Origin: an uncultured Desulfobacteraceae bacterium
Lineage (GTDB): Bacteria > Desulfobacterota > Desulfobacteria > Desulfobacterales > JAABSP01
DNA: 51,377 nucleotides
Reading direction: 5' to 3'
Assembly: GCA_964633575.1 (NCBI GenBank)
Contig: CAZWGY010000002.1
Location: 1-51,377 of the forward strand
The position numbers and the translations under genes are program-made. How positions within the stretch are numbered: position 1 is the first letter of the stretch; the number at the start of each line of letters is the position of its first letter. The notes below the pieces were generated by a model, which did no database searches, was not told where the DNA came from, and was given only the letters and a program-made list of their open reading frames with translations. This document shows positions 1,956 to 37,101 of the stretch, one piece after another.

Positions 1956-1988
1956 CCCAGTTCCCTCTCTCGTATCAAAAGTGCGCGG

Positions 1989-2807: not shown

Positions 2808-2860
2808 GTCAATCCCTTCTTAGGTTCACAGGCCGTCAAATCCGGCTGACGCGACCCGGG

Positions 2861-11642: not shown

Positions 11643-14222
11643 ATGGAATCACGACGTCAACCGCTTCAGCCCCCCGCCGGCGCCGAGGACCCGTCCGAGA
11701 TTCTTCGCCGGGCCGTGGCCCGCCATCAGAGAGGGGATCTGACGGGAGCCGGTTCCCTCTATCAGCGGGTCCTTGACGCCGACCCGCGCCAGCCCGATGC
11801 CCTCCACCTCTCCGGAGTCCTCGCCTTTCAAACCGGGGATAGGGACGCCGCCATTGACGCCATCCAAGCCGCCATCCAGCGGCGTCCGAACGAGCCGATC
11901 TACCGCAAAAATCTCGGCACCGTGCTCCAGGCGGCCGGGCGGATACCCGAAGCCATCGCGGCCTTTCGGCGGAGCCTCGATCTCAAGCCCGATTTTTTCG
12001 ACGCCGAGATCGGCCTGGCGGGGGCCATGGAGCGGCTTGGCCAGCGGGAAGCGGCCCTCGATGGATATCAGCGGTGCTTGGCGCTGAGGCCGGATGCCCA
12101 CGGGGTCTATTTCCGGATGGCCGCTACCCTCAGAGCCCTGGGACGGATCGACGAGTCCGTTGCCGCCTGCCGGGAGGCGATCCGCCGCCGGCCCGACCAG
12201 CCCCGTTACTCCGAAACCCTGGGAGACCTCCTCGCCGCCCGGGGGGAGACCGACGCCGCCCTGGATGCCTATCGGGAAGCCCTGCGCCGAGGCGGCGACG
12301 CCGCCGGCATCCGGATCAAGATCGGCATCCAGTTGGGGGGCGCCGGGAATCCCCGGGCCGCCCTGACGGCCTTTCAGGAAGCACTCCGTCTGGCGCCCGA
12401 CAACCCGGTCGCCCACCACAACGCCGGAGTGGCCCTCCGGGAGCTGGGCCGATCCCGGGAAGCCGTGGGCAGATTTCAGTCGGCCCTGGCCGGCCGCCCC
12501 GATTATGCCGAAGCCCACAACAACCTGGGCAATGCCTTTCGGGACCTCGGCCGTGATGAAGAAGCCCTTGCCTGTTACACCCGAGCCATCGAGATCCGGC
12601 GGAACTATCCGGATGCCCATAATAACATCGGCAACCTGTTAAAGGACCGGGGCCGGATCTCCCAGGCCATCGCGTCCTATGAGCGGGCGTTGGCGATCCA
12701 GCCCGACTACCCCTTTGCCCTCTACAACCTCGGCAACATCCGGGAGGAGCAGGGCCAACTCGAGACGGCCATCGATTTTTATGAGCGGGCCCTGGCGGTC
12801 CGGCCCGATTTCGGGCTCGCCTTTGCCAGCCTCGTCTATTTGCTCCAGTACGCCTGTGACTGGGACCGGCTGGCCGAACTCGGACCCCGGCTCGATGACC
12901 TCAACGCGGCGGCCCTGGAAAAGGGCCAGCGGACGCCGGAAACTCCCCTGGCCAACCTTTCCCGGAAGATGGACCCGGCGGAAAATTTCCGGATCGCCCG
13001 ATCCTGGGCCGGGGAGATCGAGCGGAACGTCGCGGCCCGGGGCGAAACCTTTGAGCCGCGGCCGGACCGGGCGTTCACCGGCGGCCGGATTCGGGTGGGC
13101 TATCTCTCCAACGATTTCCGGAGCCACCCGGTGGGACAGCTCATGGCCGGACTCTTTGCGGCTCACGACCGAAAGGTCGTCGAGGTGATCGGCTATTCCT
13201 ACGGCCGAAACGACGGGAGCGTCACCCGAGACCGGATTGCCAAAGGGTGCGACCGGTTCGTGGATATCCGGCCCCTGAGTCCCGAAGACGCCGCCCGGAA
13301 AATCCACGATGATGGCGTGGACATCCTCGTCGATCTCATGGGCCACACCCAGAGCAACCGGATGGCCATCTGCGCCCACCGGCCGGCTCCGGTTCAGGTG
13401 AGCTACCTCGGCTTTCCGGGAACCACCGGCGCCGGATTTTTCGACTACGTCCTCACTGACCCGATCCTCACCCCGCCCGAGCAGGCGCCTTGCTACAGCG
13501 AGGCCCTCGCCTACCTTCCCCACTGTTACATGGTCACCGACGACCGCCAGCCCATCTCCCGGCCCTTTCCCCGGCGGGCCGACGAGGGCCTTCCCGACGA
13601 CGCCGTGGTCTTCTGCTCCTTCAATTCGGCTCACAAGATCGAACCGGTGATCTTCGACGCCTGGATGCGGATTCTCCGGGCCGTGCCGGGGAGTGTGCTC
13701 TGGCTGCCCCGACGCCACGACGTGGCGGTCCGGAACTTGAGGCGGGCGGCGGGCCAATGGGGGGTGTCGTCGGAACGGCTGATTTTTGCCGATAAGCTGC
13801 CGGACAAGGCGGACCATATAAGCAGAATCATGCTGGCCGATCTGGCGCTGGATACCCGGATTTACAATGGCCACGCCACCACCGCCGATCTGCTCTGGAT
13901 GGGGGTGCCGGTGATTACGCTGAAAGGGCGCCATTTTGCATCCCGGGTCGCGGCCGGCTTGCTGACGGGCGTCGGGTTGCCCGAACTGGTTGTTGACCGC
14001 CTGGAAGATTATGAAGCCGTGGCCCGATCCCTGGCAACCCATCCGGACCGGCTTCGGCGCATCCGGCAACGATTGGCCAAAAACCGTCTGACCACGCCGC
14101 TGTTTGATTTGCCCCGGTTTGTCCGGGGACTCGAGCGGGCCTATCAGGAGATGGCCCGTCACTATCGTAAGGGACAGGAATGCCGAATGATTCATATTCA
14201 GCCGTCCGGAGGACGGCCATGA
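11643..14222 (+). CDS. TPR-repeat protein with C-terminal GT41 O-GlcNAc-transferase-like domain (eukaryote-type OGT/SEC-like)
   Basis: ORF track, 859 aa. About 400 aa of 34-aa TPR units (A..Y..AL...PD...A..NLG pattern) are followed, from about nt 13085, by a GT41-type catalytic region. That region reads RIRVGYLSNDFRSHPVG, DLMGHTQSNRMAICAHRPAPVQVSYLGFPGTTGAGFFDYVLTD, YNGHATTADLLWMGVPVITLKGRHFASRVAAGLL, ...TTPLFDLPRFVRGLERAYQEMARHY. As I recall it, human OGT has [33 protein letters not shown]...[24 protein letters not shown]. Confidence 0.88.
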   Translation: MESRRQPLQPPAGAEDPSEILRRAVARHQRGDLTGAGSLYQRVLDADPRQPDALHLSGVLAFQTGDRDAAIDAIQAAIQRRPNEPIYRKNLGTVLQAAGRIPEAIAAFRRSLDLKPDFFDAEIGLAGAMERLGQREAALDGYQRCLALRPDAHGVYFRMAATLRALGRIDESVAACREAIRRRPDQPRYSETLGDLLAARGETDAALDAYREALRRGGDAAGIRIKIGIQLGGAGNPRAALTAFQEALRLAPDNPVAHHNAGVALRELGRSREAVGRFQSALAGRPDYAEAHNNLGNAFRDLGRDEEALACYTRAIEIRRNYPDAHNNIGNLLKDRGRISQAIASYERALAIQPDYPFALYNLGNIREEQGQLETAIDFYERALAVRPDFGLAFASLVYLLQYACDWDRLAELGPRLDDLNAAALEKGQRTPETPLANLSRKMDPAENFRIARSWAGEIERNVAARGETFEPRPDRAFTGGRIRVGYLSNDFRSHPVGQLMAGLFAAHDRKVVEVIGYSYGRNDGSVTRDRIAKGCDRFVDIRPLSPEDAARKIHDDGVDILVDLMGHTQSNRMAICAHRPAPVQVSYLGFPGTTGAGFFDYVLTDPILTPPEQAPCYSEALAYLPHCYMVTDDRQPISRPFPRRADEGLPDDAVVFCSFNSAHKIEPVIFDAWMRILRAVPGSVLWLPRRHDVAVRNLRRAAGQWGVSSERLIFADKLPDKADHISRIMLADLALDTRIYNGHATTADLLWMGVPVITLKGRHFASRVAAGLLTGVGLPELVVDRLEDYEAVARSLATHPDRLRRIRQRLAKNRLTTPLFDLPRFVRGLERAYQEMARHYRKGQECRMIHIQPSGGRP

Positions 14223-17200
14223 CGACGGACGAGACGAAACGGCTCAAAGGGGGGGACGTCGTCGCGGCCACCGCCTCCGGCTCTGACCGGGCCGACCGGT
14301 TTCAAACCGCCTTGAGCGCTCACCAGAAAGGTCACCTGGCCCAGGCCAGAGCACTGTATGAGGAGGTGCTGGCCGACGATCCGGACCACGCCGATGCCAT
14401 CCATCTATTAGGGGTGGTTGCCTTTCAGGAAGGTCGCCATCCGGAATCCATTGACGCTATCCGGCGGGCCATTTCCATGAATCCCAATAAGGCGGTGTTT
14501 TTCGGGAATCTGGGGAATGCGTTGAAGGAATCGGGCGATCTGGACGAGGCCCGGGATGCCTATGACCGGGCATTGGCCATAAATCCGGATTTCATCGATG
14601 CCCATTACAACCGTGTCGGCATGGTCCGCTTTGAGGCCGCCGATCCCGCCTTTGATCGGCTCCATGAGCTGTTGAAAGCCTCCGCCACCGGTCCGGCGGA
14701 CCGGATGAAGCTCCATTTCACCCTCGGCAAAATGTACGCGGACATCGGCGAGACCGATGCGGCCTTTGAACAATACCGCCTGGCCAACGAGGCCCGGAAG
14801 GCCCATAAGGACTCCGACTTCAGTATTGACGACGTGGAAAAGACGGTGGCTCTCCTGATCCGGACCTTTGACCGATCGTTTTTCGAGTCCCGGACCGGTT
14901 TCGGGCTGGAGACGGCCGTTCCCGTCTTTATTGTCGGCATGCCCCGGTCGGGAACAACCCTGGTCGAGCAGATCCTGGCCAGCCATCCCAAGGTTTATGG
15001 CGCCGGGGAGATCGATGACATCGAGCGGATCTTCCAAAGCCTCGGAGACCATCGGCTGTCCGGGGCGTTTGTCCGGATTGCCCGGGGGATCGAATCGGGC
15101 CGGTCCCGGGAGCTGGCCGGGCGATACCTCGATCGGTTGAAGGCCTTGGCTCCCCATGCGGAGCGGGTCACCGACAAGATGCCCCAGAACTTCCTCTATC
15201 TCTGGTTGATCGCCCTCCTCTTTCCCAATGCCACCATCTTTCACTGCCGACGCGACCCCATGGACACCTGCCTGTCCTGCTACTTCACGGATTTTCAGAC
15301 GGGCCACGGCTACAAAAACGATCTGACCACATTGGGGCGCTACTACCGGCAGTACATCCGGCTGATGGAGCACTGGGGATCGGTCCTGCCCGTTCCCGTC
15401 CGGGAGGTCCGGTACGAGGATCTGGTGGATGATCCGGAAGGGGGGACCCGGCGTCTGATCGAGGAATCCGGTCTGCCCTGGGATGAGCGTTGCTTGAGGT
15501 TTTACGACACCCAGCGGTCGGTGGGGACGGCCAGCGTGACCCAGGTCCGCCGACCCATTTATCGCTCCTCGGTGGGCCGGTGGCGCCAATACGCCCGGCA
15601 CCTGACCCCGCTTCAAACGGCACTCGGAAAGATGGCGGCGCCCCCTTTCGACGTTAATGCCGTTTTGAAAAGCGCCGTGGAAGATCATCAGAAAGGCCGG
15701 CTCCAGGAGGCCGAAGCGGGGTATCGGCGGATTCTGGAGGCGGCACCGGCCCATGGCGATGCCCTCCATCTGCTGGGGGTACTGTCCTGTCAGACCGGCC
15801 GTCATGACGAGGGGGAGCGGCTGATCCGGAGCGCCCTCAAGGGGAATCCGAACAACCCGGTTTATCTCGATAACCTCGGCAATGCGTTGAGAGCGGCGGG
15901 AAAGCCGGAGGATGCCCTGGCCGCCTACCGCCGGGCGGCCGCCGCGTCGCCAGGGACTCCCAATGCCGGCGCCATTCATCTGAAGATGGCCCGGTTCCTC
16001 AAATCCCAGGGGCGGTTGGATGAGGCGGCGGCAAGCTATGCGGCATCCCTGGCCGTCACCCCGAACCGGGACCGGGTCCGACTCGAGCGGGCTGAATGCC
16101 TGTCCGCTCAGGGAAAGACGGCCGAGGCGGTTTCGGAGTATGCGCGATACCTGGAGCGCCATCCGTCGGATAGTACGGTGTTGGGGGAAATGGGGGCCGC
16201 GCTCAACCGGCTCGGCCGGTATCCGGAATCCGTGGCGATCCTCGACCGGGCCATTGCCCAAAATCCCGAGGTGGCTCAGCACCATACCAATCGGGGGATC
16301 GCCCTGAGAAAGCTGGGCCGGGTTGACGAGGCGGTGGATGCCTATCAAACCGCCATCCAACTCGAGCCGAACGATATCGGGGCCTATTACAACCAGATGC
16401 ATCTGAAAATCTATGAGCCGGATGATCCCGCCTTCAAGACGCTCGAAACCCTCTATCGTCACGGGACGCTTTCCAGTGCCAATCGGATGTATCTCCATTT
16501 TACCCTGGGGAAGATGTACGCCGACATCGGCGAACATGACCGGGCGTTCCACCATTACCATCAGGCCAATGAGACCCGGAAATCCCACAAGGGTCAGGAC
16601 TTTGACATCCGGGAAATCCGGGGGGCGATCGTGCTTCTGATGGAGCTCTGCGATGCCGGCTACTTCCGCGACCGCCGGGAAAGCGGGATTGCCGCGGAGC
16701 TTCCGGTCTTCGTGGTGGGAATGCCCCGCTCGGGAACCACGCTGGTCGAGCAGATCCTGGCCAGTCATCCGGAAGTCCACGGCGCGGGGGAGCTCCATGA
16801 CATCGGAAAGATCTATCACACGGTGATGAACGCCGCCTCCCAGGATGCTTTTATCGCCGCCATTCGATCGCTGGACCTGGATAGGGTCCGGGCGTCGGCC
16901 GAGCAGTATCTGGCCCGGATCGAAGCCCTGGGAAAGGGAGCCCGGCGGGTGGTTGACAAAATGCCCCAGAACTTCCTCTACCTCTGGCTGATCGCGATCA
17001 TGTTTCCCGGCGCCCGGGTCATCCACATCCGGCGGGACCCCCTGGATACCTGCCTGTCCTGCTATTTTACCGATTTTAATACCGGCCACGGCTATAAAAA
17101 CGATCTTGGGGATCTGGGTTCCTACTATGCGCTGTATCAAGCGCTCATGGCCCACTGGGGGAACGTCCTGCCGATTCCCATTCTGAACGTGACCTACGAG

Positions 17201-19528
17201 GAGCTGATCTCCGATCCGGAGACGGCTTCCCGGGAGATGGTCGAATTCTGCGGCCTCGAGTGGAACGAGCGGTGCCTTGAGTTTCACCGGCACCAGCGGG
17301 CGGTTCAAACGGCGTCCGTCACCCAGGTCCGACGGCCCATCTATCATTCTTCCGTGGGAAAATGGCGTCACTATGAACGCCATATCGAGCCCCTGAAAGC
17401 GGCCATTGCGGCTGATCCCCTCGGTTTCGACGCGGATGGGGCCATGCGGCGGGCCGTGACCTATCACCAGCAGGGGATGCTTGAATCGGCCGAAGCCCTC
17501 TACCGGAAGGTTCTGGCGGAAGCGCCGGATAACCCGGATGCCAGCCACCTTTTGGGCGTGTTGTCGTTTCAGCGGGGGGAAGCGACCCAGGGGGTCGAGC
17601 TGATCCAGCAAGCGACCCGGATCGATCCGGACAACTGGGCCTATTTCAACAACCTCGGCACCGCGTTGAAAAACGCCGGCCGGGTGGAAGAGGCCATTGA
17701 CGCCTATCTCCGGGCCATCGACCTGAAACCGGATCACCATGAGCCGCACTATAACCTGGGGGTGGCCCTGGCCGACGCCGGCCGGACCGAGGAGGCCATC
17801 GAGCGATACCGTCACGCCACCACCTTGAAACCGGACTATTGCGAAGCCTTCAACAACATGGGCAACGCCCTCAAAAGCATGGGGCGGTTGGACGAGGCCA
17901 TCGATAGCTACCAACGGGCCATCAAGATTAACCCCGACTACGCCAAGGCATACAACAACCTGGGCAGCGCGCTTTCCGGCCGGTTCAAATTCAAGGATGC
18001 GGTGGCCGCTTTCCAGCGGGCCATTGCCTTGAATCCGGAGTACCACGAAGCCTACAATAACCTCGGGGCCGCACTCAAGGACCGGGGGCAATTGAGTGCC
18101 GCCATCCGGAATTACCGGAAGGCCATCGCCCTGAAGCCGGATTATTATGAGGCCCACAACAACCTTGCCAACGCACTCAACAACCAGGGAAAGCTCGAAG
18201 AAGCGGTGACGGCCTACCGTCATGCGCTCGATATCAAGCCGGAATGCCATGAGGCTCATGATAATCTCCTGCTGACCCTCCAATACCTTCCCGATCATGA
18301 CCCCGCCCAGCTCCGGGCGGAGCATGATCACTGGGATGTCCGCCATGCCCGGCATCTGGCCGAAGAGGCGCCGCCCCACGGAAACGACCGGTCACCGGAT
18401 CGGCGGATTCGGGTCGGGTTCGTCTCCCATGATTTCGGCCGGCATCCGGTGGGCTATTTCCTGGTGGCCTACCTCGCGGCCCATGATCCGGATGCGGTCG
18501 AAGTCGTCTGCTATTCCGATCGGGTTCAGGAGGACGACATGACGGAGACCATCCGGTCCCATAGCGCCCTCTGGCGCCGGACGGTGGGTGTGCGGGATGA
18601 GCCGATGGCCGATCAAATCCGGGAGGACGGCATCGATATCCTCGTGGACATGTCCGGCCACACCGCCAAGAATCGGCTGATGGTCTTCGCCCGTCGGCCG
18701 GCGCCGGTTCAGGTGACCTGGCTGGCCTACCCCGGGACCACCGGCATGGCGGCGATGGACTATCTCATCGCGGACCGATGGGTGGCCCCGCCGGGAATGG
18801 ACGACGCCTACGCCGAAAGTCTGCTCCGGCTGCCGGAATCCTATCTCTGCTACGAGCCGCCGGATTACGCGCCGGATGTCAACAGCCTCCCGGCCCTCGA
18901 GAACGGCCATCTCACCTTCGGCTGCTTCAACAACCTGGCCAAGGTCACCCCGGCGGTGATTTCTCTCTGGGGGCGGATCCTTCGGGCTGTACCGGATGCC
19001 CGCCTTCTTCTCAAGTACCGATCCTTCAATGATAAAGCCGTCCAGGACCGGTACCGGGAGCTGCTAGCCGGTGAGGGGATCGCCGAGGACCGGATCGATC
19101 TCATCGGGGCATCAGCCTCTCATGTCACCCACCTCTCCCATTTCAACCGGATTGACGTGGCCCTCGATCCGTTCCCCTATAACGGGACCACCACCACCTG
19201 CGAGACCCTTTACATGGGGGTGCCGGTGATCAGCCTGGCCGGCCAGACCTTTGTCAGCCGTCAGGGGTGCGGTATCCTGGAAAATGTCGGGCTTTCGGAC
19301 TGGATTCCCCGCTCCTATGATGCCTATGTGGAGCGGGCGGTCACCTGCGTTGATCAGCTCGACGCGCTCAATGCCCTGCGCGGGACGCTTCGGCAACGGG
19401 TGGCGGACTCGCCGTTATGCGATGCCGGGCGGTTTGCCCGGCACCTGGAAGCGGGTTTTCGGCAAATCTGGAGACGGTGGTGCGACGGAATGGACCCATG
19501 GGCCGTGACCGTTGAGAGGGACTCGTGA
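14219..19528 (+). CDS. Multidomain enzyme: TPR-sulfotransferase, TPR-sulfotransferase, TPR-GT41 glycosyltransferase
   Basis: ORF track frame 14180..19528. I prefer ATG 14219 because GGAGGA lies 5 nt upstream and it forms an ATGA overlap with the upstream stop at 14220-14222. There are two sulfotransferase modules with the 5'-PSB-type motif [18 protein letters not shown]. The GT41 module starts at about 18401 ([69 protein letters not shown]). Confidence 0.88.
   Translation: [1769 protein letters not shown]
14923..15610 (+). other. Sulfotransferase module 1 (PAPS-dependent, TPR-linked family) inside gene 14219..19528
   Basis: [29 protein letters not shown] ... [38 protein letters not shown] ... 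[16 protein letters not shown]. This matches my recollection of the bacterial family of TPR-containing sulfotransferase proteins. Confidence 0.8.
16700..17393 (+). other. Sulfotransferase module 2 (paralog of module 1) inside gene 14219..19528
   Basis: [29 protein letters not shown] ... [38 protein letters not shown] ... [16 protein letters not shown]. It is collinear with module 1, including the preceding [13 protein letters not shown] segment. Confidence 0.8.
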
Positions 19529-22368
19529 TCCGGACCTCGGAAGCAACAGTTTCGGCGGCCGGCCGGCGGCACCCCGCGCCAGCGGACCCGCGAATCCGGG
19601 AGGCGCTCCAGCTCCGCCGCCGGGGGGAAGGCGAGCGGGCGGTGGCATTGGCCCGGGAGATTCTCCGGGACCGGCCGGAACATCCGGACGCGCTCCATCT
19701 GGTCGGATTGGCGGCTTATGATAAAGGGGACCTCGAGACGGCGGTACGGTGGATCGAGCGGGCCATCGCCGCCGATGATGCCAATCCGGCCTACCACATC
19801 AATCTGGGCAACGCCCGAAAAGCGGCCGGCGATCTTGATGAGGCCGTCAAGAGCTACGAGGCGGCCCTGGCCCGGCGGCCGGACTTTCCCCCGGCCCGAA
19901 AGAACCTGGGCCTGGCCCTGACCGCCATGGGCCGGCACCAGGAAGCCCTGGCCCAGTTTCAGCGGGTCCTCGATGCCCATCCGGATGACCTGGAGGCCGC
20001 CGCCCATATCGTCCTTCCCCTCCGGGCCCTGGATCAACGGGATGCGGCCATCGAACATTGCCGACGGGCATTGGCGCGGCATCCTGAAAACGTCGGTCTC
20101 CTGAGCAACCTCGGTAACCTGCTCCGGGAAGTCGGTCGGCCGGACGAGGCCGAATCCTTCTACCGACGGGCCATCGAGCTCCAGCCGGCCCATCCCGGGA
20201 TCTGGAACAACCTGGGAAACGCGCTCGGGGACCTGAAACGGCCGGCCGAAGCCCTCGACGCCTATCGGCGGGCCACCGACCTCAAACCGGCGTACCATGA
20301 AGCCTGGATCAGCATGGGAGTCGTCCAGATGGCCATGGAACAGCCGGAGGCCGCGGCCGACAGCTTCCGTCGGGCCACTGAGATTCGGCCCGATTTCGCG
20401 GTCGCCCATCGAGGGCTTGGCGATGCCCTGGGAAAACGCTGGCTGCTCTCGGATGCCGCGGACAGCTACCGCCGGGCACTCGATCTGGACCCCAACGCCG
20501 AAACCCTCAACAACCTGGGCAATGTCTTAAAAGACGGGGGAGAGGTCGAGGAGGCCCTGAATTGCTACCGAAAGGCCCTGGCGCTTCAGCCCGATTACGT
20601 CGTGGCTCACGACAATATCCTCATGACGCTCCATTACGTGGCCGACGGGGACTTCCAATCCATCGCCGAGGCCCACGCCCGATGGGATGACCGGCATGGC
20701 CGCCCGCTGACCGAAGCGGCATCCCGGCCCTCACGGGACGGCGATACCGACCGGCAACTCGCCGTCGGGGTGGTCTCCAAAGATTTCGGCCTCCACCCGG
20801 TGGGATACATTCTGGCCCCCTGGCTGGAGGCCCATGATCGGGACCGGCTCCGGATCGTCTGCTACTCGGACCGGACCCGGGAGGACCGGATGACCCGCCG
20901 GCTCCGGGAGTACGCTGACGCCTGGCGGGATACCGCCGAGATGGACGACGAGGCCCTGGCCCGCCGAATCCGCGAGGACCGGATCGACGTCCTCATGGAC
21001 CTATCCGGCCACACGGCGGGAAACCGGCTCCTGGTTTTCGCCCGGACCCCGGCTCCGGTCCAGGTGACTTGGGCGGCCTATCCCGACACATCCGGGCTCG
21101 ACGCCATGGATTACCTCCTCTGCGACGGCCGGGCCGTCCCCGAGGAAACCCGGCAGTGGTTTTCCGAGATCCCGTGGCGGCTGCCGTCGAGCTATCTCTG
21201 CTATGCCCCGCCCGAGGCCGCCCCCTCGCCTTCGCCATTGCCGGCGGCGGAGGCCGGTCACCTCACCTTCGGAAGCTTCAACAATCTGGCCAAGATCACT
21301 CCGGCGGTGATCCGGCTCTGGGCGGAGATCCTCCGGCGCCGACCCGACGCTCGGATGATGCTCAAGTACCGGGCCTTCGAGGACCCGGAAACCCGGCGGC
21401 GGTACGCCGAGTGGTTTAGCGCCGAGGGGATCGGGGCCGACCGATTTGAATTGCTGGGCAGCTCCCCATCCCACCCCGAGCATCTGGCCGCTTACCAACG
21501 GGTGGACGTGGCTCTAGACCCGTTTCCCTACAACGGGACCACGACCACTTTAGAAGCGATCTACATGGGCGTGCCGGTTATCAGCCTGGCGGGGGAGTCC
21601 TTTATCTCCCGGCAGGGGTGCTCGATGTTGACGGCCCTCGGGATGGCGGACTGGATCGCCGACTCGACCGAGGCCTATGTGACGCGGGCCGTTGAGGCGG
21701 GGCGGGATCTGGATGCCCTGGCGGCGGTGAGACGGGGGCTCCGGGAACGGCTCCTCGGTTCCCCCCTCTGTGATGGGCCGGGGTTTGCCCGAGAGATGGA
21801 GACCGCATTGCGGTCGATCTGGAAAGCGGGGAAAAGCGGTCGGGCTTCCGATCCGGTGACTGATGCCGGACCGGATAGCCAACTGCTCCTGATCAGCCGA
21901 CGGGACGGTTCCGTTGACGATCTCCCCCCGCCGTTTGCCGGATGGAACGGGCGGATTCGGCGGGTGGCCGGGGCCGGGCCGGCAACCGAGGACTTGCTGG
22001 CCGGGATTCCGCCGGCGTCGATGGATGGGCTCTACTGCCCCGGCGAGCTGGTCCGGTGGGAAACCCACGCGGTGGCCAGGGTGCTGTCCGCCTTCGGCCG
22101 GGTCATTCGCCCTGGCGGTGCCCTGGTGGTCGAGGTGCCCGATCTCCAATGGGCGGGAGCGGCCATTGCCAACGGAACGAATGTCAAAACGGCTCTGAAG
22201 ATGGTTTACGGCCCATCCGACGGGAAAGGTGGTTATCGAACCGGATTCACATCCAGCCGTCTGCGCGGCCTGCTGGACGAGGCGGGCTTTCGGGACATTG
22301 AGCTGATCGGGATGGAAGGGCGGTTGCGGGCGGTTGCCCGTAACGGCGCCGAACGGGAGGACCGATGA
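19525..22368 (+). CDS. TPR - GT41 glycosyltransferase - degenerate methyltransferase-like C-terminal domain
   Basis: ORF track, 947 aa. GTG 19525 forms a GTGA overlap with the upstream stop. The TPR array is followed by a GT41 module from about 20752 ([66 protein letters not shown]). The tail from about 21875 aligns by eye with the methyltransferase module of gene 28607..32986 ([16 protein letters not shown]) but lacks the VLHVGCG motif I. Confidence 0.85.
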   Translation: [947 protein letters not shown]

Positions 22369-25300
22369 CCTCGCCTTCTCCATCGAGCGAATCACTCACA
22401 CCGGCCGCCGCGTTTCGCCGGGCCGCCGCCCTCAGAGCCCAGGGGGATCTCCCCCACGCGGCCGAGGTCTGCCGACGGATTCTGGATCGGGACCCGGACC
22501 ATGCCGACGCGCTTCATCTCCTCGGGGTCATCGACTTTCAGGCCGGACGACTCACCGAGGCCGTCCGGCGGATTGGCCGGGCCATTCGTCTCCGGCCGAA
22601 GCGTTCCGATTTCTACAGCAACCTGGGCAATGTCCTGAAAAAGCGGGGGAGGCTGAAGGCATCGCTGGCGGCCTTCAAGCGGGCCAAGACCCTCAACCCC
22701 GAATCGCCGGACATCCTGAATAATATGGGGGTGACCCTCTATGAGCTCGGCCGGCTGGACGAGGCCATTGCCGCTTACGAGGCGGCGATCTCGCTGCGTC
22801 CCGACTACGCCGAGGCCTACAACAACCTCTGCGTCCCCCTGAAGGACAAGGGGCGGCACGGGGCGGTCCTGTCCTGCTGCCGAAAGGCGGTGGAGTTGTC
22901 TCCCCGGAACGCCGGGGCCCACAGCAACCTTGGCAACGCTCTGAGCAACCTCGGGCGGATTTCCGAGGCCGTGTCGGCCTACGAGCGGGCGATCGACCTG
23001 AATCCCCGATTCGCCGGCGCGTACAATAATCTGGGCAATGCCCTGAAGGACCGGGGGCGGGTCGATGAGGCCATTGACGCCTACCGGCGGGCCCTTTCGG
23101 TGAACCCCGATGACCGCAACGCCCACGACAACCTTATCTTGACCATGCACTACAGCCCCAACGAGTCGGCGGGGACCCTGCGGGCGGAGCGGCAACGGTG
23201 GAACGCCCGGTTTGCCGAGCCACACCGGGCGGGCATCCGGCCCCACCAAAACGACCGGCGGCCGGATCGGCGGCTCCGGATCGGCTTCGTGTCCAGCGAC
23301 TTCGGCCGGCATCCCGTGGGCTATTTTCTGGCCCCTTATCTGGCCTGCCACCGTCGCGAGGCGGTCGAGGTGATCTGCTACTCGGACCGGAAACAGGACG
23401 ATTCCCTGACCGTTCAGCTCCGGCGGATGGCCGATGGATGGCGCCAGACCGTGGGGTTGAGTGATGATCGGCTGGCCCGGGCCATCCGGGAGGACCGGAT
23501 CGACATCCTGGTGGATCTTTCCGGGCACACCGCGGGAAATCGTCTCCTCACGTTCGCCCGAAAGCCGGCCCCCGTCCAGGCCGTCTGGATCGCCTATCCG
23601 GACACCACCGGGATGGCGGTCATGGATTACCTGATCACCGACGGTCGGGTGACGCCACCGGGAGCGGAAAAAGACTTCTCCGAGCGGTTGGCCCGGCTGC
23701 CCGAGACCTACGTCTGCTACGCGCCGCCGGACCGGGCTCCGGCGGTCACTCCGCTGCCCGCGCTGGACGCCGGAGGGATCACCTTCGGGTGTCTCAACAA
23801 CATCGCCAAGATGACCCCGGAGATGGTCTCGATCTGGTCCCGGATTCTCCGCCGGGTGCCGGAGAGCCGTCTCATCCTGAAGTACAAGTCCTTCGGGGAC
23901 GACTCGGTCCGTCAACGCTACCGCCGCCTCTTTGCCGACGCGGGAATCGATCCGGCTCGGGTGGTCATGCGGGGGTTTTCCCCCACCCACCGCGAGCACC
24001 TGGAGACCTACCAGGAGATCGATATCGCCCTTGATCCGTTTCCCTACAACGGCACCACCTCCACCTGTGAGGCCCTCTACATGGGGGTTCCCGTGGTGGG
24101 ATCGGCCGGGACGACCTTTGTGGGCCGGCAGGGGGTAAGTTTGCTCCATACCGTTGGGTTGTCCGACTGGATCGCCGGAGATGAGGAAGGATATGTCGGG
24201 ATGGCGGTCCGCCGGGCTGGTGACCTCGAAGCCCTGGCCGCACTCCGGCGGTCCCTCCGGGAGCGGATGCGCCAATCGCCCCTCTGCAATGCCGCCCGGT
24301 TTTCCCGGTTTCTGGAAACGGCCTTCCGCCGGATGTGGGGACAATACCTGGGACGGACCGATCCCAACCGTCTGATCAAAGCCGCGGTGACCGCCCACCG
24401 GAGCGGCGATCCCGACCGGGCCGAGCGGCTCTATCGGCGAATTCTCGAGACAACGCCCGACCATCCGGACGCCCTCCACCTCCTGGGCGTCGTCTGCTGC
24501 CAGTCAGACCGCCTGGAGGAGGGCGCCGAGCTCATCGAGCGGGCCATCGCCGTCCAGCCGAATCAGGCGGCGTTCCACTCCAGCCTGGGCAATGCCCGGA
24601 AAGGGCTGGGGCAGCTCAATGCGGCCCGGGCCGGCTACGAGCGGGCCATCGCCCTTAATCCGGACTTCTCCGAAGGGCATTACAACCTGGCCAACCTCTT
24701 AAAAGCCGACGGCCGGATGGACGAGGCCATCGACCATTTCCGGGCCGCGTTGAAGATCAATCCCGACTCGGTTGCCGTCTGGAACAACCTGGCCAATGCG
24801 CTTCGGGAAAAGGGGGAGATGGCCGAGGCGATCCGCTGCTACCGGGAGGCGGTCCACCGGAAGCCGGATTACGCGGAGGCCCTGGCCAACCTCGGCTCCG
24901 CGCTCAAGACGAACGGCGAGGTGGAGGCGGCCGAAAGGTGCCTCCGGGATGCCCTGACCCGCCTTCCGGAGGTTCCCCGCCTCCACCACCACCTGGGGAA
25001 TCTCCTCCGGGAGCGGGGGGACCTCGACGGCGCGGCCGGCCATCTCGAAAAGGCCCTCTCGCTGGCCCCCGATGACAGCCTCATCCACTCCGGACTGGGC
25101 TTTCTCCGGTCGGATCAGGGACGGCGGGATGAGTCCCTGGCCGCTTTTCGGCGGGCGGTCGAGCTCAAACCGGACGATCACGCGGCCCACATGAACCTGG
25201 GCAACGCCCTGATGGAGCGCCGATCCGCCGGCGAGGCCATGGCCTGCTTTAATCAGGCCCTGGACCTCAAGCCCCATTCCCATGAAACCCTGACCAACCG

Positions 25301-26675
25301 GGGCAACCTCTTCAAGGAGCTTGGGGAGGCCGAAAAGGCGGTGGACAGCTACCAGCAGGCCCTGGCTCTGAATCCCGAATTCCGTGCCGCGTTTGAAAAC
25401 CAGCTTCTGGCCATGCACTGCCTGCCGGACCTTTCCCCCGAGGCGATCCGCCGGGCCCATGACGAGTGGAACTCGCGGTTCGCGGCTCCCCTGGCTGATC
25501 CGGCGGCCCAGCACGACAACGATCCGAGCCCCGACCGGCGCCTCCGGGTGGGGATCGTCTCCATGGACTTCGGTCAACATCCGGTCGGGTATATTCTCCT
25601 GCCCTTTTTCGAGGCCCATGATCCCGAGGCCATCTCCCTGTTCTGCTATACGGACCGCCGGCGGGAAGACCCGGTGACCGGTCGGCTCAAAGCCCGCGCC
25701 GCCGCCTGGCGCCCCATTGCCGGCCTGTCGGATCGGAGGGTGGCCGAGATGGTCCGGTCGGACCGGATCGATATCCTGGTGGACATGTCCGGCCACACCG
25801 CCGGCAACCGGCTTCTGGTTTTCGCCCGGAAGCCGGCCCCCATTGAGGTGAGCTGGGCCGCCTATCCCGACACCACCGGAATGACGGCGGTGGATTACAT
25901 CATTGCCGACCGGTGGGTGATTCCCGACGGCGCGGAGGCGGGATTCGCCGAGACCCCCCGCCGGCTGCCGGTGAGCTACCTCTGCTGGGAGCCGCCGGCC
26001 CATGCGCCCCCCGTCGGGCCGTTGCCGGCTCTGGAACGGGGATATCTCACCTTCGGCTGCACCAACAATCTGGCCAAGGTCACGAAAACGGTGATCGCCC
26101 TCTGGGCGGAGATTCTGAAGGCGGTGCCCGACGCCCACCTGTTGATGAAAAACCGGTATCTGGAAGACCCGGAAGTCGCGGACCGGTTCCGGAGCCGGTT
26201 TGTCGATGCCGGGGTCGATCCGGACCGGATTGAGCTGATGGGATATACCCCGAATCACACGGCTCACCTGTCGGCTTACGGACGGATCGACGTGGGGCTC
26301 GACCCTTTTCCCTACAATGGCACCACCACCACCTGCGAAACCCTGTATATGGGGGTTCCGGTGATCAGTCTGGCCGGGCGGACCTTCGTGGCCCGGCAGG
26401 GGGTCAGTATCCTCAACACCGTCGGTCTCCCCGACTGGGTGGCGGCATCGGAGTCGGACTACGTGGAGCGGGCGGTGGCCAGCGGGGCGGACCTCGATGC
26501 ATTGGCAAAGCTGCGGGCCGGATTGCGGGACCGGATGGCCACGTCGCCCCTCTGTAACGGCCCCCGGTTCGCCCGGGATATCGAGCGGGCGTTTCGAGAG
26601 ATGTGGCGCCGGTGGTGCGCCTCCCAGACAACGGAAAGGCAAGGCCATGGCGAAAAAACGTCGGCGGAAAGCTAA
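22365..26675 (+). CDS. Double-module enzyme: TPR-GT41-TPR-GT41
   Basis: ORF track, 1436 aa. There is an ATGA overlap with the upstream stop. GT41 module 1 spans about 23269-24355 ([17 protein letters not shown] ... [19 protein letters not shown]). GT41 module 2 runs from about 25537 to the end ([17 protein letters not shown] ... [19 protein letters not shown]). Each module is preceded by its own TPR array. Confidence 0.88.
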   Translation: [1436 protein letters not shown]

Positions 26676-28617
26676 ACGGAAGCAGAGGCGCGCCCCCAAC
26701 CGCGGCGTCCCGGCCCAGGGTCCCCCGACAGGCGGGCCGGCGGCGGTGGATGACCTGTTGAAGACGGCGGTAGCCCGTCACCAGGCCGGGGATGGAGCCG
26801 CGGCGGCCGCTTTGTACGAAAAGGTTCTGGAGATCGATCCGGATCAGCCGGACGCTCTTCATCTACTGGGGGTCCTCGCCTGCCAGGATGATGATCCGGG
26901 CCGGGGGGCCGAGTTGATCGAGCGGGCTGTCCGGCTCTCCCCGGACCAGGCCCTCTACAACAGCAACCTGGGGGCCGCCCTCCGGGGCGCCGGCCGGCTC
27001 GATGACGCCCTGGCGGCCTGCGACCGGGCGATTGCCCTGGACTCCGGCCATCCGGACGCCCATGCCAACCGGGCCACCGTCCTTCGGGAGCGGGGAGCCG
27101 CCGCCGATGCCGAGGCCGCCTGCCGCCGGGCGCTGACTCTGAGCCCCAATCATCCCGGCGCCTGGAACACCCTCGGGCTGGCCTTGCGGGATGGGGGGAA
27201 GCTCACCGAAGCCATCGATGCCTACCACCGGGCCATCGAGGCCCGGCCGGACCACGCCGAAGCCCTGAACAACCTCGGCCGGGTCCTCCAGGACGCGGGG
27301 GATGTCTCCGAAGCCATCGACTCTTTCCGCGGAGCCCTGGCCCATCGGCCCGATTACCGGCAGGCCCACGGCAATCTTCTCCTGGCCCGCCATTACGAGC
27401 CGGGGATCGACCCGGGAACCCTCAAAGCGGCCCATATCGAGTGGGGCCGGCAATTCGCCGATCCGCTGACGGGGTCGGCGCCCGTGCCGATCCGGGACCG
27501 GGACCCTGACCGGCGGCTCCGGGTGGGATTCATCTCGGCCGATCTGGCCAGACATCCGGTGGGGTTTTTTCTGGCGCCCTATCTCGCCCATCGGGATGCG
27601 GCTTCGACCGAGGTCTTCGCGTATGCCAACCGGCTGGGGGCCGACCGGATGACCGAATGGCTCAAAGCCCATGTGGACCACTGGGAGACGGTGGTGGGAA
27701 TGACCGACGAGACCCTGGCGGACCGGATTCGGTCGGACGGGATCGACATCCTGGTGGACCTCTCCGGACACACCGCCCGGAACCGGCTGCTGGTCTTTGC
27801 CCGAAAGCCGGCCCCGGTCCAGGCCACCTGGATCGGCTATCCCGACACCACGGGGCTGACGGCCATGGACTACCTCATCGCCGACCGCTGGGTGATTCCG
27901 GAGGGGGCCGAGGACGAAATCCTTGAAACACCGGTCCGGCTTCCGGCCGGCAACCTCTGCTATGCCCCGCCCCCGTCGGCGCCGGCAATCGGTCCTCCGC
28001 CCGCGGCAAGCCGGGGCCACCTCACCTTCGGCTCCTTCAACAACTTGGCCAAGGTCACCGACGAAACGGTGGATGTCTGGGCGAAGGTGCTCCGTGCCAT
28101 CCCCGACGCCGCCCTGATCATGAAGGCCCGGGTGTTTGACGACGAAGCGGTCCGCGACCGCTATCGAACTCGTTTCGCCGGGGCCGGGATCGCCGCCGAC
28201 CGCCTGACCCTGATCGGCGCCTCGCCGACCCATGCCGAGCATCTGGCCCATTTCAACCAGGTGGACGTGGCCCTCGACCCGTTTCCCTATAACGGAGCCA
28301 CCACCACCTGCGAAGCCCTCTACATGGGCGTCCCCGTGATCAATCGGCGGGGACGGACCATCGCGGGCCGTCAGGGGGAGAGCATCCTGACCCGGATCGG
28401 TTTGGCCGACTGGGTGGCGGACAGCGACGCCGGGTACGTGGACCGGGCGGTCCGGTGCGACCGGGAGCGGGAGTCCCTGGCCGGGCTCCGCCGGGGAATG
28501 CGAAAGCGGATGCTCGCCTCCGCCCTCTGTGACGGGCCCCGGTTTGCCCGGAGCCTCGATGCGGCTTTTCGCGGGATGTGGAAAAACTGGTGTGAGGGGG
28601 GAGCTCATGGACGGTGA
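26647..28617 (+). CDS. TPR-GT41 glycosyltransferase with highly basic N-terminal tail
   Basis: ORF track frame 26497..28617. The first plausible start is ATG 26647 (MAKKRRRKAKRKQRRAPNRG...), which overlaps the upstream gene end by 29 nt. An alternative start is GTG near 26743. The GT41 module starts at about 27511 (RLRVGFISADLARHPVG, DLSGHTARNRLLVFARKPAPVQATWIGYPDTTG, FPYNGATTTCEALYMGVPV). Confidence 0.82.
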   Translation: MAKKRRRKAKRKQRRAPNRGVPAQGPPTGGPAAVDDLLKTAVARHQAGDGAAAAALYEKVLEIDPDQPDALHLLGVLACQDDDPGRGAELIERAVRLSPDQALYNSNLGAALRGAGRLDDALAACDRAIALDSGHPDAHANRATVLRERGAAADAEAACRRALTLSPNHPGAWNTLGLALRDGGKLTEAIDAYHRAIEARPDHAEALNNLGRVLQDAGDVSEAIDSFRGALAHRPDYRQAHGNLLLARHYEPGIDPGTLKAAHIEWGRQFADPLTGSAPVPIRDRDPDRRLRVGFISADLARHPVGFFLAPYLAHRDAASTEVFAYANRLGADRMTEWLKAHVDHWETVVGMTDETLADRIRSDGIDILVDLSGHTARNRLLVFARKPAPVQATWIGYPDTTGLTAMDYLIADRWVIPEGAEDEILETPVRLPAGNLCYAPPPSAPAIGPPPAASRGHLTFGSFNNLAKVTDETVDVWAKVLRAIPDAALIMKARVFDDEAVRDRYRTRFAGAGIAADRLTLIGASPTHAEHLAHFNQVDVALDPFPYNGATTTCEALYMGVPVINRRGRTIAGRQGESILTRIGLADWVADSDAGYVDRAVRCDRERESLAGLRRGMRKRMLASALCDGPRFARSLDAAFRGMWKNWCEGGAHGR

Positions 28618-35547: not shown

Positions 35548-37101
35548 ATGAGGGGTGGGGGCGGATATGACGTGTATAACCGGATTTTCATTCTGATGAC
35601 GGCGACGGTAATCAGCCTGATGATCGGGAGCGGGTGTACCACCCGTTATACCGTTGACCTGGCGGCGGATCGTGAGATCAACGCGGCCGATGACCTGGAA
35701 CTCCTCAAGCCCCAGGAGTCGGTGACCGTGCCCGAGCCGTTGACCCTGGAAGCGGCCGTTCGGTTCAGCTTCGAGCACAACCTCGAAATGCGGATCAACC
35801 GGATCATGGCCCGGATCGATGACGACAAGGCCCTGGCCAAGAACCTCGAAATGCTTCCCGATTTCACCTTGCAGGCGGCGATAGAGGACAAAAGCGATTA
35901 CCTCCGGGCCTCGATCTCCGAGGAGCGCACTCAGAAGACCGCCGACCTCACCCTTGCCTGGAACCTCCTCGATTTCGGGATTTCCTATATTCGGGCCCGG
36001 CAGGCCGCGCTTCAGAACGAAGTCCGGCGGATGGAGCGGCTCCGACAGGCCCAGACCCTCGCGCTCGACATCGCCGGCACCTTTTTTAAGGCGGCCATGG
36101 CCGAGCGGGATCTCGAACGGGTCCGAACCGTCGAGGAGCAGATGCGCCGCTACCTCGAGAAGGCCTCCGAGATGGTCGCCCAGAACCGCCTCGACCCCAT
36201 CGTGGCCAAGGACATCGAAAAGAAGCTCACCGAGATGGCCATCACCGTCGGAACCCTCCAGGCCGATCTTTCCGGAGCCAAATACGAGCTTGCCAAGCTG
36301 ATGGGCCTGCCCGCCGGGACCGACCTCGTTCTGGCCGACGGCCGGGCCGAAAACTGGATCGAAGATCTCCCCGAGCTGGACGCCCTCGACCCGATGGCCC
36401 TCGAACGGATCTCCCTCCACAACCGCCCGGAGTTCTTTGCCGCCGATCTCAACAGCCGGATTCAGCATGACGAGGCCCGTGCCGCACTTGTCCAGATGTT
36501 CCCGAGCATCCGGTTCGACCTGGCCGGCCATTACAACGGCAACGATTCCTATGTCACCAACGAATGGGCCACCGTCGGCGCCGGGCTCATGTACAATTTC
36601 CTGGCCCTGCCCGCCCGGTACATGGAATGGAACGCCCAGGTGAAGGCCGAAACCAAGGTCCGGCTCGAACGGCTGCTCCTCACCGGGAGCGTCATCGCCC
36701 AGACCCACCTGGCCCTTCATGAATACACCGTTAAAACCCGTCATTTCAAACTCAATGACGAGGCATTCCGGGTTTCCGCGGAGCTGCTCGACATGACCGC
36801 CGAGCGCCACGCCCTCGGAACCCTGTCCGATACGGAGATAACCGAGCGGATGCAGGAGCATATCGTCACCACGCTCAAGCGGAACCAGAGCCTGATCGAC
36901 CTGATCCATGCCTACCACACGCTCCTGGTCACCCTCGGACTCGATTATTATCGGTGGGAGACGCCCCTGGCCGATCAGGACCCGGACGCGGCTCCCATGG
37001 ACATCGGCACCCGGAATATCATGGTGCCGGACGGCGTTGTCATCCGGCCCGCTCAAACAGAGCCCGCGGCACCGCTCCCGGCGGCGGCCGCCGCACGGTA
37101 G
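35548..37101 (+). CDS. TolC-like outer-membrane efflux/secretion factor (OEP family), possible lipoprotein
   Basis: ORF track, 517 aa. The N-terminal hydrophobic segment ends in IGSGC (weak lipobox). LTLEAAVRFSFEHNLEMR is a typical OEP opening. Two long alpha-helical/coiled repeats carry L..A...L..A patterns. The start is uncertain (ATG 35548, GTG 35572 or ATG 35596). Confidence 0.8.
   Translation: MRGGGGYDVYNRIFILMTATVISLMIGSGCTTRYTVDLAADREINAADDLELLKPQESVTVPEPLTLEAAVRFSFEHNLEMRINRIMARIDDDKALAKNLEMLPDFTLQAAIEDKSDYLRASISEERTQKTADLTLAWNLLDFGISYIRARQAALQNEVRRMERLRQAQTLALDIAGTFFKAAMAERDLERVRTVEEQMRRYLEKASEMVAQNRLDPIVAKDIEKKLTEMAITVGTLQADLSGAKYELAKLMGLPAGTDLVLADGRAENWIEDLPELDALDPMALERISLHNRPEFFAADLNSRIQHDEARAALVQMFPSIRFDLAGHYNGNDSYVTNEWATVGAGLMYNFLALPARYMEWNAQVKAETKVRLERLLLTGSVIAQTHLALHEYTVKTRHFKLNDEAFRVSAELLDMTAERHALGTLSDTEITERMQEHIVTTLKRNQSLIDLIHAYHTLLVTLGLDYYRWETPLADQDPDAAPMDIGTRNIMVPDGVVIRPAQTEPAAPLPAAAAAR

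Follow-up and report, generated by a model that had tools for sequence, protein, structure and literature searches.

A predicted cytoplasmic fusion of two TPR-sulfotransferase modules with a TPR-GT41 glycosyltransferase module, encoded in a seven-gene operon near a putative giant surface protein gene of an uncultured Desulfobacteraceae bacterium

The window analysed here, a 51-kb stretch of DNA (51,377 nucleotides; contig CAZWGY010000002.1 of assembly GCA_964633575.1) from an uncultured Desulfobacteraceae bacterium, contains a gene, designated g2, which codes for a fusion of two tetratricopeptide repeat (TPR)-sulfotransferase (ST) modules with a TPR-glycosyltransferase (GT) module of family GT41 (14219..19528 including the stop codon, plus strand; all features described below are on this strand unless stated otherwise). 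An earlier reading of the letters (the sequence-only reading) had described a single polypeptide of 1769 amino acids (aa), which was borne out: the open reading frame (ORF) extends from 14180 or 14219 to 19528 without interruption, and Pfam detected the claimed domains, i.e., two Sulfotransfer_3 stretches (6.4e-96), many TPRs, and Glyco_transf_41 (6e-54). ATG 14219, which gives a protein of 1769 aa, is the likely start codon, because it overlaps the stop codon of the upstream gene g1 (ATGA) and is preceded by GGAGGA. The sense frame has a codon-position pattern rich in GC at the third position (GC3), typical of normal coding sequence; minus-strand antisense ORFs under g1 and g2 were rejected as genes, as they have no Pfam match and show the GC pattern of shadow ORFs. 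The same 1769-aa protein, with the single substitution A892G, is represented by a database entry (P0249) found on three contigs of independent assemblies. Neither a signal peptide nor a transmembrane segment was detected in g2, which is predicted to be cytoplasmic. A match to the NCBIfam equivalog "MamA" at aa 1182-1340 (252.6 bits, as compared to a cut-off of 200) was dismissed as a TPR-driven false positive, and the other NCBIfam matches are generic and likewise driven by the TPRs. The "MamA" match of the TPR region could mislead automated annotation.

The g2 protein consists of three complete modules, each comprising a TPR array and a catalytic domain. In module 1, the TPRs (aa 25-150; 14291..14668) include the Asn-containing motifs FFGNLGNAL (aa 94) and AHYNRVGMV (aa 128), and are followed by sulfotransferase domain 1 (aa 151-481; 14669..15661), a predicted helical cap plus a core resembling tyrosylprotein sulfotransferases (TPSTs), as delimited by hidden Markov models (HMMs), TPST alignments, an AlphaFold2 (AF2) model, and Foldseek. 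Module 2 starts with TPRs at aa 482-744 (15662..16450) that open with "HQxGxLxxAE..P.H.DALHLLGV" and contain Asn motifs at aa 549 and 688; its sulfotransferase domain 2 (aa 745-1074; 16451..17440) was identified by HMM and by alignment to domain 1. The TPRs of module 3 (aa 1075-1355; 17441..18283) comprise five successive Asn repeats of the form (A/Y)(F/Y/H)NN(L/M)(G/A) between aa 1142 and 1312, and lead into the GT41 catalytic domain (aa 1356-1769; 18284..19525), which is SPINDLY-like and lacks the intervening domain of OGT, as judged from alignment to solved structures. Pfam and a motif scan thus place the Asn-containing TPR motif of the OGT/SPY type ahead of all three catalytic domains. In OGT and SPY, this motif lines the substrate groove.

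Two collinear sulfotransferase copies had been claimed by the sequence-only reading, and all motifs quoted in its support indeed occur twice, with a constant offset of 594 aa and without insertions or deletions: PRSGTT at aa 242 and 836, DKMPQN at 319 and 913, RRDP at 344 and 938, VRRPIY at 443 and 1037, and HFTLGKMYADIGE at 166 and 760. A module size of about 590 aa agrees with the repeat period of 594 aa and with module 2 (about 594 aa), but not with module 1, which is only about 480 aa long because module 2 has more TPRs. BLASTP of one half against the other gave 50% identity over 476 aa (E = 2e-169), and the estimate by eye of 55-60% identity was a fair one, given 62% ungapped identity over the cores (aa 235-464 versus 829-1058) and 55% over the 331-aa domains. 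In a family alignment of 21 diverse sulfotransferase cores, the closest relative of the first domain is the second one (56% identity), the other aligned members sharing at most 48%. Since the two are each other's closest relatives among the aligned family members, the duplication is, on sequence comparison, lineage-specific.

No loss of PAPS-binding or catalytic residues (PAPS, 3'-phosphoadenosine 5'-phosphosulfate), of the kind that the sequence-only reading had regarded as an objection to its own proposal, was found in either copy; both keep all of them. GMPRSGTT, the motif for binding of the 5'-phosphosulfate (5'-PSB), is present at aa 240-247 and 834-841 and aligns with GVPRSGTT of the TPSTs; GM.RSG, the GAGE glutamate, the DKMP lysine, and Arg..Asp..Ser within the 3'-phosphate-binding (3'-PB) motif are invariant across the 21 family cores. 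In copy 1, R243 (within PRSGTT, 14942-14959), E264 (15008-15010), K320 (15176-15178), and the 3'-PB pair R345 and S353 (15251-15277), and in copy 2, R837 (within PRSGTT, 16724-16741), E858, K914, R939, and S947, align with R78, E99, K158, R183, and S191 of TPST2, the last two of which belong to its 3'-PB motif. Arg78, Glu99, and Lys158 of TPST2 are catalytic, the respective alanine mutants being inactive (PMC10951654). From their sequences, both copies of g2 look active.

The family profile detected TPSTs at about 1e-23, the sulfotransferase domains of olefin and curacin (polyketide) synthases at 1e-11 to 1e-7, and cytosolic SULTs at about 1e-5. The fold was modelled on copy 1 (pLDDT 88.2, pTM 0.88), to which copy 2 is 55% identical. 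A Foldseek search of the PDB with this model returned TPSTs at ranks 1-13 (TMt 0.60-0.68), and all 25 matches at E <= 0.001 were sulfotransferases or retinol dehydratase, which has the sulfotransferase fold; carbohydrate sulfotransferases such as 3-OST matched weakly (E 1e-4 to 1e-3, TM <0.5). In sequence and in modelled fold, the sulfotransferase modules of g2 are thus nearest to TPST1 and TPST2. The animal enzymes (PDB 3AP1, 5WRI, and 8W5Z from tick) are the best match to both profile and fold, and their 5'-PSB, 3'-PB, and Arg/Glu/Lys trio align in both g2 copies, which are, however, only 21-24% identical to TPSTs. TPSTs, which lack TPRs, are type II membrane proteins of the Golgi lumen, whereas the g2 modules are predicted to be cytoplasmic, have neither a signal peptide nor a transmembrane segment, and follow TPR arrays and a helical cap. 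Because the type II Golgi membrane topology is absent, the modules are classified, as far as sequence comparison goes, as TPST-like at the active site and not as orthologues of animal TPSTs.

The complete TPR-GT41 module said to follow the two sulfotransferase modules was confirmed by Pfam (PF13844, 183.7 bits versus a cut-off of 25, directly downstream of the TPRs of module 3) and by a contiguous alignment with SPINDLY: the C-terminal 414 aa of g2 align in one stretch to residues 455-850 of Arabidopsis SPINDLY (SPY) with E = 4.9e-99, and to Thermobaculum TtOGT with 3.6e-89. Mutagenesis of SPY has pointed to H495, S496, K665 (essential), Y744 (a gate for donor size), and T748 as important, with H728 stacking on the purine; H498 of human OGT is the equivalent of the active-site residue H495 (PMC9715652). 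SPY H495, N661, K665, H728, Y744, and T747-749 correspond to H1409, N1571, K1575, H1638, Y1654, and T1657-T1659 of g2, all within 18284..19525. Among these positions, the only difference is at S496, which orients the acceptor serine in SPY and is replaced by Pro1410 in g2, as in human OGT. Because of this replacement, the g2 domain is regarded from its sequence as SPY-like, and not as a SPY orthologue. Since Tyr occupies the position of SPY Y744, the sequence argues against N-acetylglucosamine (GlcNAc) as donor and for a rather small sugar (PMC9715652), and the His conserved at the position of H728 hints at a purine nucleotide, i.e., a GDP-linked donor. Like SPY, a plant protein O-fucosyltransferase (PDB 7Y4I), and TtOGT (5DJS), the g2 module has N-terminal TPRs, lacks the OGT intervening domain and keeps the key residues; unlike SPY, which is a stand-alone nucleocytoplasmic regulator, it is fused to sulfotransferases and encoded beside eight more GT41 domains. 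No HMW1C/NGT chain was among the PDB matches of the g2 GT41 domain at E <= 1e-20, and the module was not assigned to the HMW1C-like N-glycosyltransferases, as canonical TPRs are found where the HMW1C family has an all-alpha N-terminal domain. HMW1C itself has no TPRs.

Seven consecutive genes, g1 to g7 (11643-35274), code for a total of nine GT41 domains, two sulfotransferases, and one methyltransferase, and none of their products has a signal peptide or transmembrane segment. Besides g2, the genes as assigned by Pfam and HMM are g1 (TPR-GT41, 859 aa; 11643..14222), g3 (TPR-GT41, 947 aa; 19525..22368), whose GTG start overlaps the g2 stop (GTGA), g4 (TPR-GT41-TPR-GT41, 1436 aa; 22365..26675), which has an ATGA overlap with g3, g5 (TPR-GT41; 26647..28617), whose likely start ATG 26647 overlaps the end of g4, g6 (28607..32986; likely start ATG 28607), in which a methyltransferase (Methyltransf_11, Methyltransf_23) is flanked by two TPR-GT41 units (Glyco_transf_41), and g7 (TPR-GT41; 32983..35274), which has an ATGA overlap with g6 and a divergent donor pocket. 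With junctions that are either ATGA/GTGA overlaps or overlaps of 11-29 nucleotides (nt), g1-g7 have the sequence organization of a translationally coupled operon. The equivalents of H1409 and K1575 are kept in all nine GT41 domains of the operon; because g1 and g7 deviate at donor-pocket positions, the sequences suggest that donor sugars differ between the paralogues. Pfam gave no match for the C-terminal extensions, each of about 165 aa, in g3 (21865-22365) and g7 (34765-35271), which could be unrecognised domains. As for methylation, it appears to be part of a modular toolkit: besides the g6 fusion, relatives join GT41 or sulfotransferase modules to FkbM-type methyltransferases (cluster P0021, and a gene in locus L004).

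Each module of g2 opens with a repeat of the form "..HQxGxLxxAExxYRxxLxxxPxHxDALHLLGV..", which is also the N-terminus of stand-alone TPR-GT41 and TPR-ST proteins (P0003, P0005). As each module starts in the manner typical of stand-alone proteins, the fusion looks like three formerly separate operon genes that were joined via loss of stop codons, an event easily imagined since genes of the operon overlap by four bases; no new mechanistic principle would be involved.

Downstream of the operon, 274 nt after its end, starts a gene (35548..37101) for an outer-membrane efflux protein that resembles TolC, carries a signal of the lipoprotein type (..LMIGSGC), and is matched by Pfam OEP and weakly by the NCBIfam TolC model; with this protein as query, no relative was found in the genome collection. 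The next gene (37271..50302) codes for a putative giant surface protein of 4343 aa, which is the candidate substrate. According to Pfam, repeat, and composition analyses, it has DUF4347 at the N-terminus and a cadherin-like domain at the C-terminus, besides about 38 repeats of the Calx-beta type (about 109 aa each); it is rich in Thr (15.6%) and Asp (12.4%), and has neither Cys nor a Sec signal. By sequence, this is the profile of a type-I-secreted giant adhesin. The motif G-G-G-Y-(S/D/T)-G occurs once per repeat of about 109 aa and accounts for 23 of the 109 Tyr residues, as compared to 7.0 +/- 2.6 in shuffled sequences. This sequence context resembles that of the RaxST-sulfated tyrosine of RaxX (GGGDsYPPPG), but may reflect no more than a structural position within the Calx-beta fold. 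The GC content is 62-69% over the GT41 operon and 55-60% over the TolC/adhesin region and the first 2 kb, so that operon and adhesin gene may have different histories, or the Thr/Asp-rich repeats may bias composition. A scan for promoters and terminators between operon and adhesin gene gave counts at chance level.

A partial gene of the SapC family (Pfam SapC, 3.4e-42) runs off the end of the window (50972..51377). SapC is also encoded within a cluster of TPR-ST, GT41, and methyltransferase genes of Thiorhodovibrio (L004, 3456-4253), and the window and L004 were the only matches of the SapC HMM among 90 loci. SapC has been described alongside peptide-modifying dioxygenases, halogenases, and TonB-like receptors, with sulfotransferases in related neighbourhoods (Iyer et al. 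2010, PMC2938197). Its association with the present system is possible, the linkage being anecdotal. Upstream of the operon, the window contains genes of a Liv-type ABC transporter, the binding protein of which is 74-76% identical to those of Desulfonema magnum, other Desulfobacterales, and Syntrophobacterales, and 94% identical to P0121, which is encoded on a 330-kb contig of what is probably a close relative. These identities make a member of the Desulfobacterota the probable source of the contig analysed here. Further upstream, on the minus strand (1242-5410), a cluster codes for an FHA-domain protein, a PP2C phosphatase, and a CHASE2-sensor Ser/Thr kinase; nothing evident connects it with the operon.

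A search of 5.8 billion proteins indicated that the nearest relatives of g2 are 38-45% identical. Domain maps of the best 120 clusters, drawn with HMMs built from the modules of the window itself, revealed the architecture ST-ST in about 80 clusters, and three or four consecutive sulfotransferase modules in several clusters each. Sulfotransferase and GT41 modules are fused in other orders in at least 13 protein clusters, namely as ST-GT (P0013, P0014, P0028, P0041, P0071, P0072), GT-ST (P0016, P0021), GT-GT-ST (P0018, P0026, P0030, P0033), and triple GT-ST (P0008). The order ST-ST-GT was found in g2 only and is unique so far among these 120 clusters, while concatenation of TPR-enzyme modules (sulfotransferase, GT41, methyltransferase) is recurrent in kind. 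The covalent linkage of sulfotransferase and glycosyltransferase is less special than the sequence-only reading had implied, as TPR-ST and TPR-GT41 occur elsewhere fused in many orders, or as separate neighbouring genes. An exhaustive profile search for the sulfotransferase family retrieved 19,130 cluster representatives (50% identity clusters) at E <= 1e-30. In species-representative genomes, at least 594 family matches were confirmed, and Alpha-, Beta-, and Gammaproteobacteria, Planctomycetota, Desulfobacterota, Gemmatimonadota, and Fibrobacterota were among the matches listed. Public annotations call the members merely "tetratricopeptide repeat protein" or "sulfotransferase".

The family expands locally, much as do the GT41 genes in the window. 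Arrays of stand-alone TPR-ST genes were observed in a gammaproteobacterial metagenome-assembled genome (MAG), with seven such genes in 21 kb adjoining a gene for a TonB-dependent receptor (L047), and in a Phycisphaerales MAG with four in a row (L075). Another relative, P0010 (3039 aa), combines four TPR-ST modules with a C-terminal region containing a 2-oxoglutarate (2OG)-Fe(II) oxygenase domain (PF13640), an architecture which fits the hydroxylate-then-sulfate idea of Iyer et al. (2010, PMC2938197).

The neighbourhoods of fusion homologues and of stand-alone ST-ST genes were surveyed, as were 80 genome loci with family members, all as raw counts without a background rate. Clusters around fusion homologues contain, besides additional TPR-GT41 and TPR-ST genes, those for several methyltransferases, for sulfotransferases of other kinds, for a TPR-2OG-oxygenase, and for SapC (in Thiorhodovibrio), as well as nucleotide-sugar genes. 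At the P0016 locus, the GT-ST fusion gene is accompanied by genes for nonulosonic-acid-type sugars, a further sulfotransferase gene, and a gene for adenosine 5'-phosphosulfate (APS) kinase, the only one among the fusion loci. An ST-ST gene of Thauera starts 70 nt after two genes for 1440-aa autotransporters, and that of Bradyrhizobium follows genes for a membrane-fusion protein of a type I secretion system (T1SS), a TibC-like adhesin heptosyltransferase, and two Thr/Asn/Gly-rich proteins without known domains. Among the 80 genome loci, autotransporters are encoded within a few kb of a TPR-ST gene in four more (L026, L076, L077, L087), a cadherin-like protein in L020, and giant T/S/G-rich proteins without domains in L025, L032, and L071. 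Among proteins with three GT modules, P0004 starts 14 nt downstream of a repeat protein of 2401 aa that is rich in Thr and Gly and carries an RTX-like motif at its C-terminus, and P0004 is followed by nucleotide-sugar genes, and P0017 from Magnetococcales comes after an rmlACDB-like set and lies beside a 6413-aa Ser/Thr/Asp-rich repeat protein; P0053 has sugar-modification genes and no giant protein nearby. BLASTP of the adhesin of the window against the giant proteins of L090 and L092 detected no homology; as far as sequence comparison goes, they have in common the protein class, and not the family. Giant secreted proteins of unrelated secretion types recur as neighbours, though not universally. 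Two screens were dropped: the Tyr content of neighbour proteins, considered as a test for tyrosine sulfation, ranged from 0.2% to 5% without a clean pattern, and some ORFs called "adhesin-like" by a composition heuristic turned out to be TonB-dependent receptors.

In our interpretation, for which we see an even balance of chances, g2 is a cytoplasmic tri-modular enzyme that, together with the other products of the operon, would decorate a protein, most likely the 4343-aa one, before its export. All three catalytic domains are very probably active enzymes of the classes assigned to them from sequence. That the acceptor is a protein seems probable, and its identity with the 4343-aa neighbour is proposed tentatively. 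The sequence-only reading had suggested sulfation and glycosylation of the same protein substrate; this is plausible in view of the intact motifs, the TPST-like fold, the TPRs, and the giant gene downstream, while the substrate, and the choice between Tyr, Ser/Thr, and sugar as acceptor, are indirect deductions in that proposal. As a mechanism, the TPR arrays might hold extended segments of the newly made giant protein, as in OGT, SPINDLY, and FlmG. The GT41 domains, those of g2 working together with the six other TPR-GT41 proteins of the operon, would put small sugars on its abundant Thr and Ser residues, the methyltransferase of the operon would then modify the added sugars, and the two PAPS-dependent sulfotransferase modules would add sulfate, either to Tyr, as favoured by the TPST-like active site, or to the installed sugars. 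The decorated, still unfolded chain would leave the cell by way of a type I system whose terminal component is the TolC-like protein, which, like the giant protein without Sec signal, is encoded 0.3-2 kb downstream of the operon. In its most specific form, namely a cytoplasmic "decoration line" of seven genes which loads a type-I-secreted Calx-beta protein with O-sugars, methyl groups, and sulfate (as sulfotyrosine and/or sulfated glycans), the model is doubtful.

A number of observations weigh against this interpretation. Only the adjacent position of the adhesin gene points to a substrate, and this co-location could equally be due to chance. Within the 51-kb window, neither a gene for PAPS synthesis nor genes for a T1SS ABC transporter or membrane-fusion protein were found. 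TtOGT and XcOGT, the closest solved bacterial GT41 enzymes, were inactive on bacterial proteins (PMC9715652). The neighbour proteins of the Bradyrhizobium ST-ST protein contain only 0.8% Tyr, a poor fit to tyrosine as universal acceptor. Several fusion homologues lack a giant-protein gene within 10 kb, and TonB-dependent receptors are the large neighbours in 7 of the 80 loci, so that contexts are heterogeneous. The literature searched yielded no paper on TPR-sulfotransferases, on ST/GT41 fusions, or on sulfated autotransporter or T1SS adhesins.

Other explanations have to be weighed against decoration of the giant protein. We consider it unlikely that the sulfotransferase modules act on O-sugars previously installed by the GT41 domains, rather than on side chains, to give sulfated, partly methylated O-glycans. 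The fusion or clustering of sulfotransferases with GT41 and methyltransferases in many genomes would make sense in such a scheme, as would the P0016 locus with its GT-ST fusion, sugar genes, APS kinase, and additional sulfotransferase, and the Tyr-poor, Thr-rich composition of the Bradyrhizobium neighbour proteins. However, profile and fold are clearly closest to protein-tyrosine sulfotransferases, enzymes of the 3-OST type matching weakly, and most proteins with single, double, or quadruple sulfotransferase modules have no GT41 gene within 10 kb; since such a gene is present in only 6 of the 80 loci, the sulfotransferases do not generally depend on a glycan made by GT41. Rather improbable in our view is that the adhesin gene adjoins the operon by coincidence and that the enzymes have different targets, be it flagellin or pilin, or many proteins of the cytoplasm under regulation of the OGT/SPY kind. 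Flagellin is the substrate of FlmG (PMC7591256), and pilin that of Synechococcus Ogt according to a preprint, both being characterised bacterial TPR-glycosyltransferases; SPY and OGT modify many nucleocytoplasmic proteins (PMC9715652). That several homologous loci have no giant protein nearby, and that the FHA/PP2C/Ser-Thr kinase signalling cluster lies in the same window, would also be in line with other targets. Yet no flagellar or pilus gene is present within the 51-kb window, three examined multi-GT41 loci and at least six TPR-ST loci directly adjoin giant secreted-type proteins, and nine GT41 domains plus two sulfotransferases suit a repetitive, heavily decorated substrate better than a regulatory switch.

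Non-protein acceptors, i.e., a polysaccharide, lipid, or small metabolite, for instance in the formation of a sulfated exopolysaccharide or of a secondary metabolite, with the TPRs merely assembling a multi-enzyme complex, appear distinctly improbable: characterised GT41 enzymes named in the literature searched all act on proteins, TPSTs are the best match in both sequence and fold, and the window contains no export or polymerase gene of the Wzx/Wzy/Wza type and no polyketide synthase or nonribosomal peptide synthetase gene. What speaks for such acceptors is that the sulfotransferase domains of polyketide/olefin synthases, along with mycobacterial Stf enzymes, rank second among the structural relatives, and that some relatives adjoin TonB-dependent receptors or cluster with methyltransferases, radical-SAM enzymes, and dioxygenases, in clusters partly linked to peptide-derived metabolites (Iyer et al. 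2010, PMC2938197). Finally, the fusion might be an artefact of assembly or frameshift, or a decaying pseudogene with inactive sulfotransferase copies, considering that adjoining genes overlap by only 4 nt, so that one sequencing error could merge ORFs, and that no other ST-ST-GT protein is among the best 120 database hits. This view is largely refuted by the recurrence of the same 1769-aa ORF, with one substitution, in independent assemblies, by the conservation of all invariant family residues in both sulfotransferase copies and of the GT41 catalytic residues, by the normal codon-position GC of g2, and by the ST/GT41 fusions in at least 13 other protein clusters.

The proposed decoration of the giant protein by g2 and its operon has partial precedents. 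RaxST of Xanthomonas oryzae, compared here by description, is likewise bacterial, cytoplasmic, and PAPS-dependent, with a TPST-like PAPS motif. This small enzyme has a single domain, and its substrate is a short peptide with one Tyr. RaxST sulfates RaxX, and raxST belongs to the raxSTAB operon with the T1SS genes raxA and raxB, linked to the gene of the secreted substrate (PMC4646787), an arrangement that may have a parallel in the g2 operon, which adjoins the TolC-like gene and the gene for a protein without Sec signal; no TPR or GT41 domain is mentioned for RaxST (PMC4646787), whereas g2 has both. HMW1C/NGT and TibC/Aah are cytoplasmic glycosyltransferases encoded beside a giant adhesin, which they decorate many times before secretion (PMC3012730, PMC3983070), and a TibC-like gene adjoins the Bradyrhizobium ST-ST homologue. 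However, HMW1C, a GT41 enzyme that glycosylates the HMW1 adhesin (PMC3012730), N-glycosylates Asn residues of HMW1, which is secreted by the two-partner (type Vb) pathway (PMC3012730, PMC3983070), and no sulfation is involved in the HMW1C, TibC, and Aah systems. In FlmG of Caulobacter crescentus, an N-terminal TPR domain binds the flagellin substrates, and a C-terminal GT-B domain modifies them in the cytoplasm before export; unlike g2, FlmG is a single module without sulfotransferase that transfers pseudaminic acid (PMC7591256), and the g2 window contains no flagellar genes. A literature search for the glycosylated cadherin-like flagellar-sheath protein of the magnetotactic MO-1 retrieved nothing, and this protein does not count as evidence here. 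The chemistry classes of g2 are known; their coupling in one chain, and the family of TPR-TPST-like proteins, are unstudied in the literature searched, which names RaxST as the only bacterial protein sulfotransferase.

The existence of such fusions in databases would not astonish a specialist; the locus is of value as an unusually direct test of surface-protein sulfation, as a stretch of 36 kb codes for a pair of intact sulfotransferases resembling TPSTs, a glycosyltransferase akin to SPINDLY, and a giant protein that is plausible as substrate, so that co-expression and direct testing are possible. Should protein sulfation fail, attention would turn to non-protein acceptors for the family. If the proposal is true, no enzyme known before g2 would have united protein glycosylation with the PAPS-dependent sulfation of proteins in a single polypeptide, and modular enzymes would become available for engineering sulfated glycoproteins. 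The cytoplasmic decoration of adhesins, as known from HMW1C and TibC/Aah, would be extended to sulfation, and a function would be assigned to a very large unannotated family. With about 19,000 TPR-TPST-like clusters, sulfation of bacterial surface proteins would then be widespread, and no peculiarity of RaxST in Xanthomonas.

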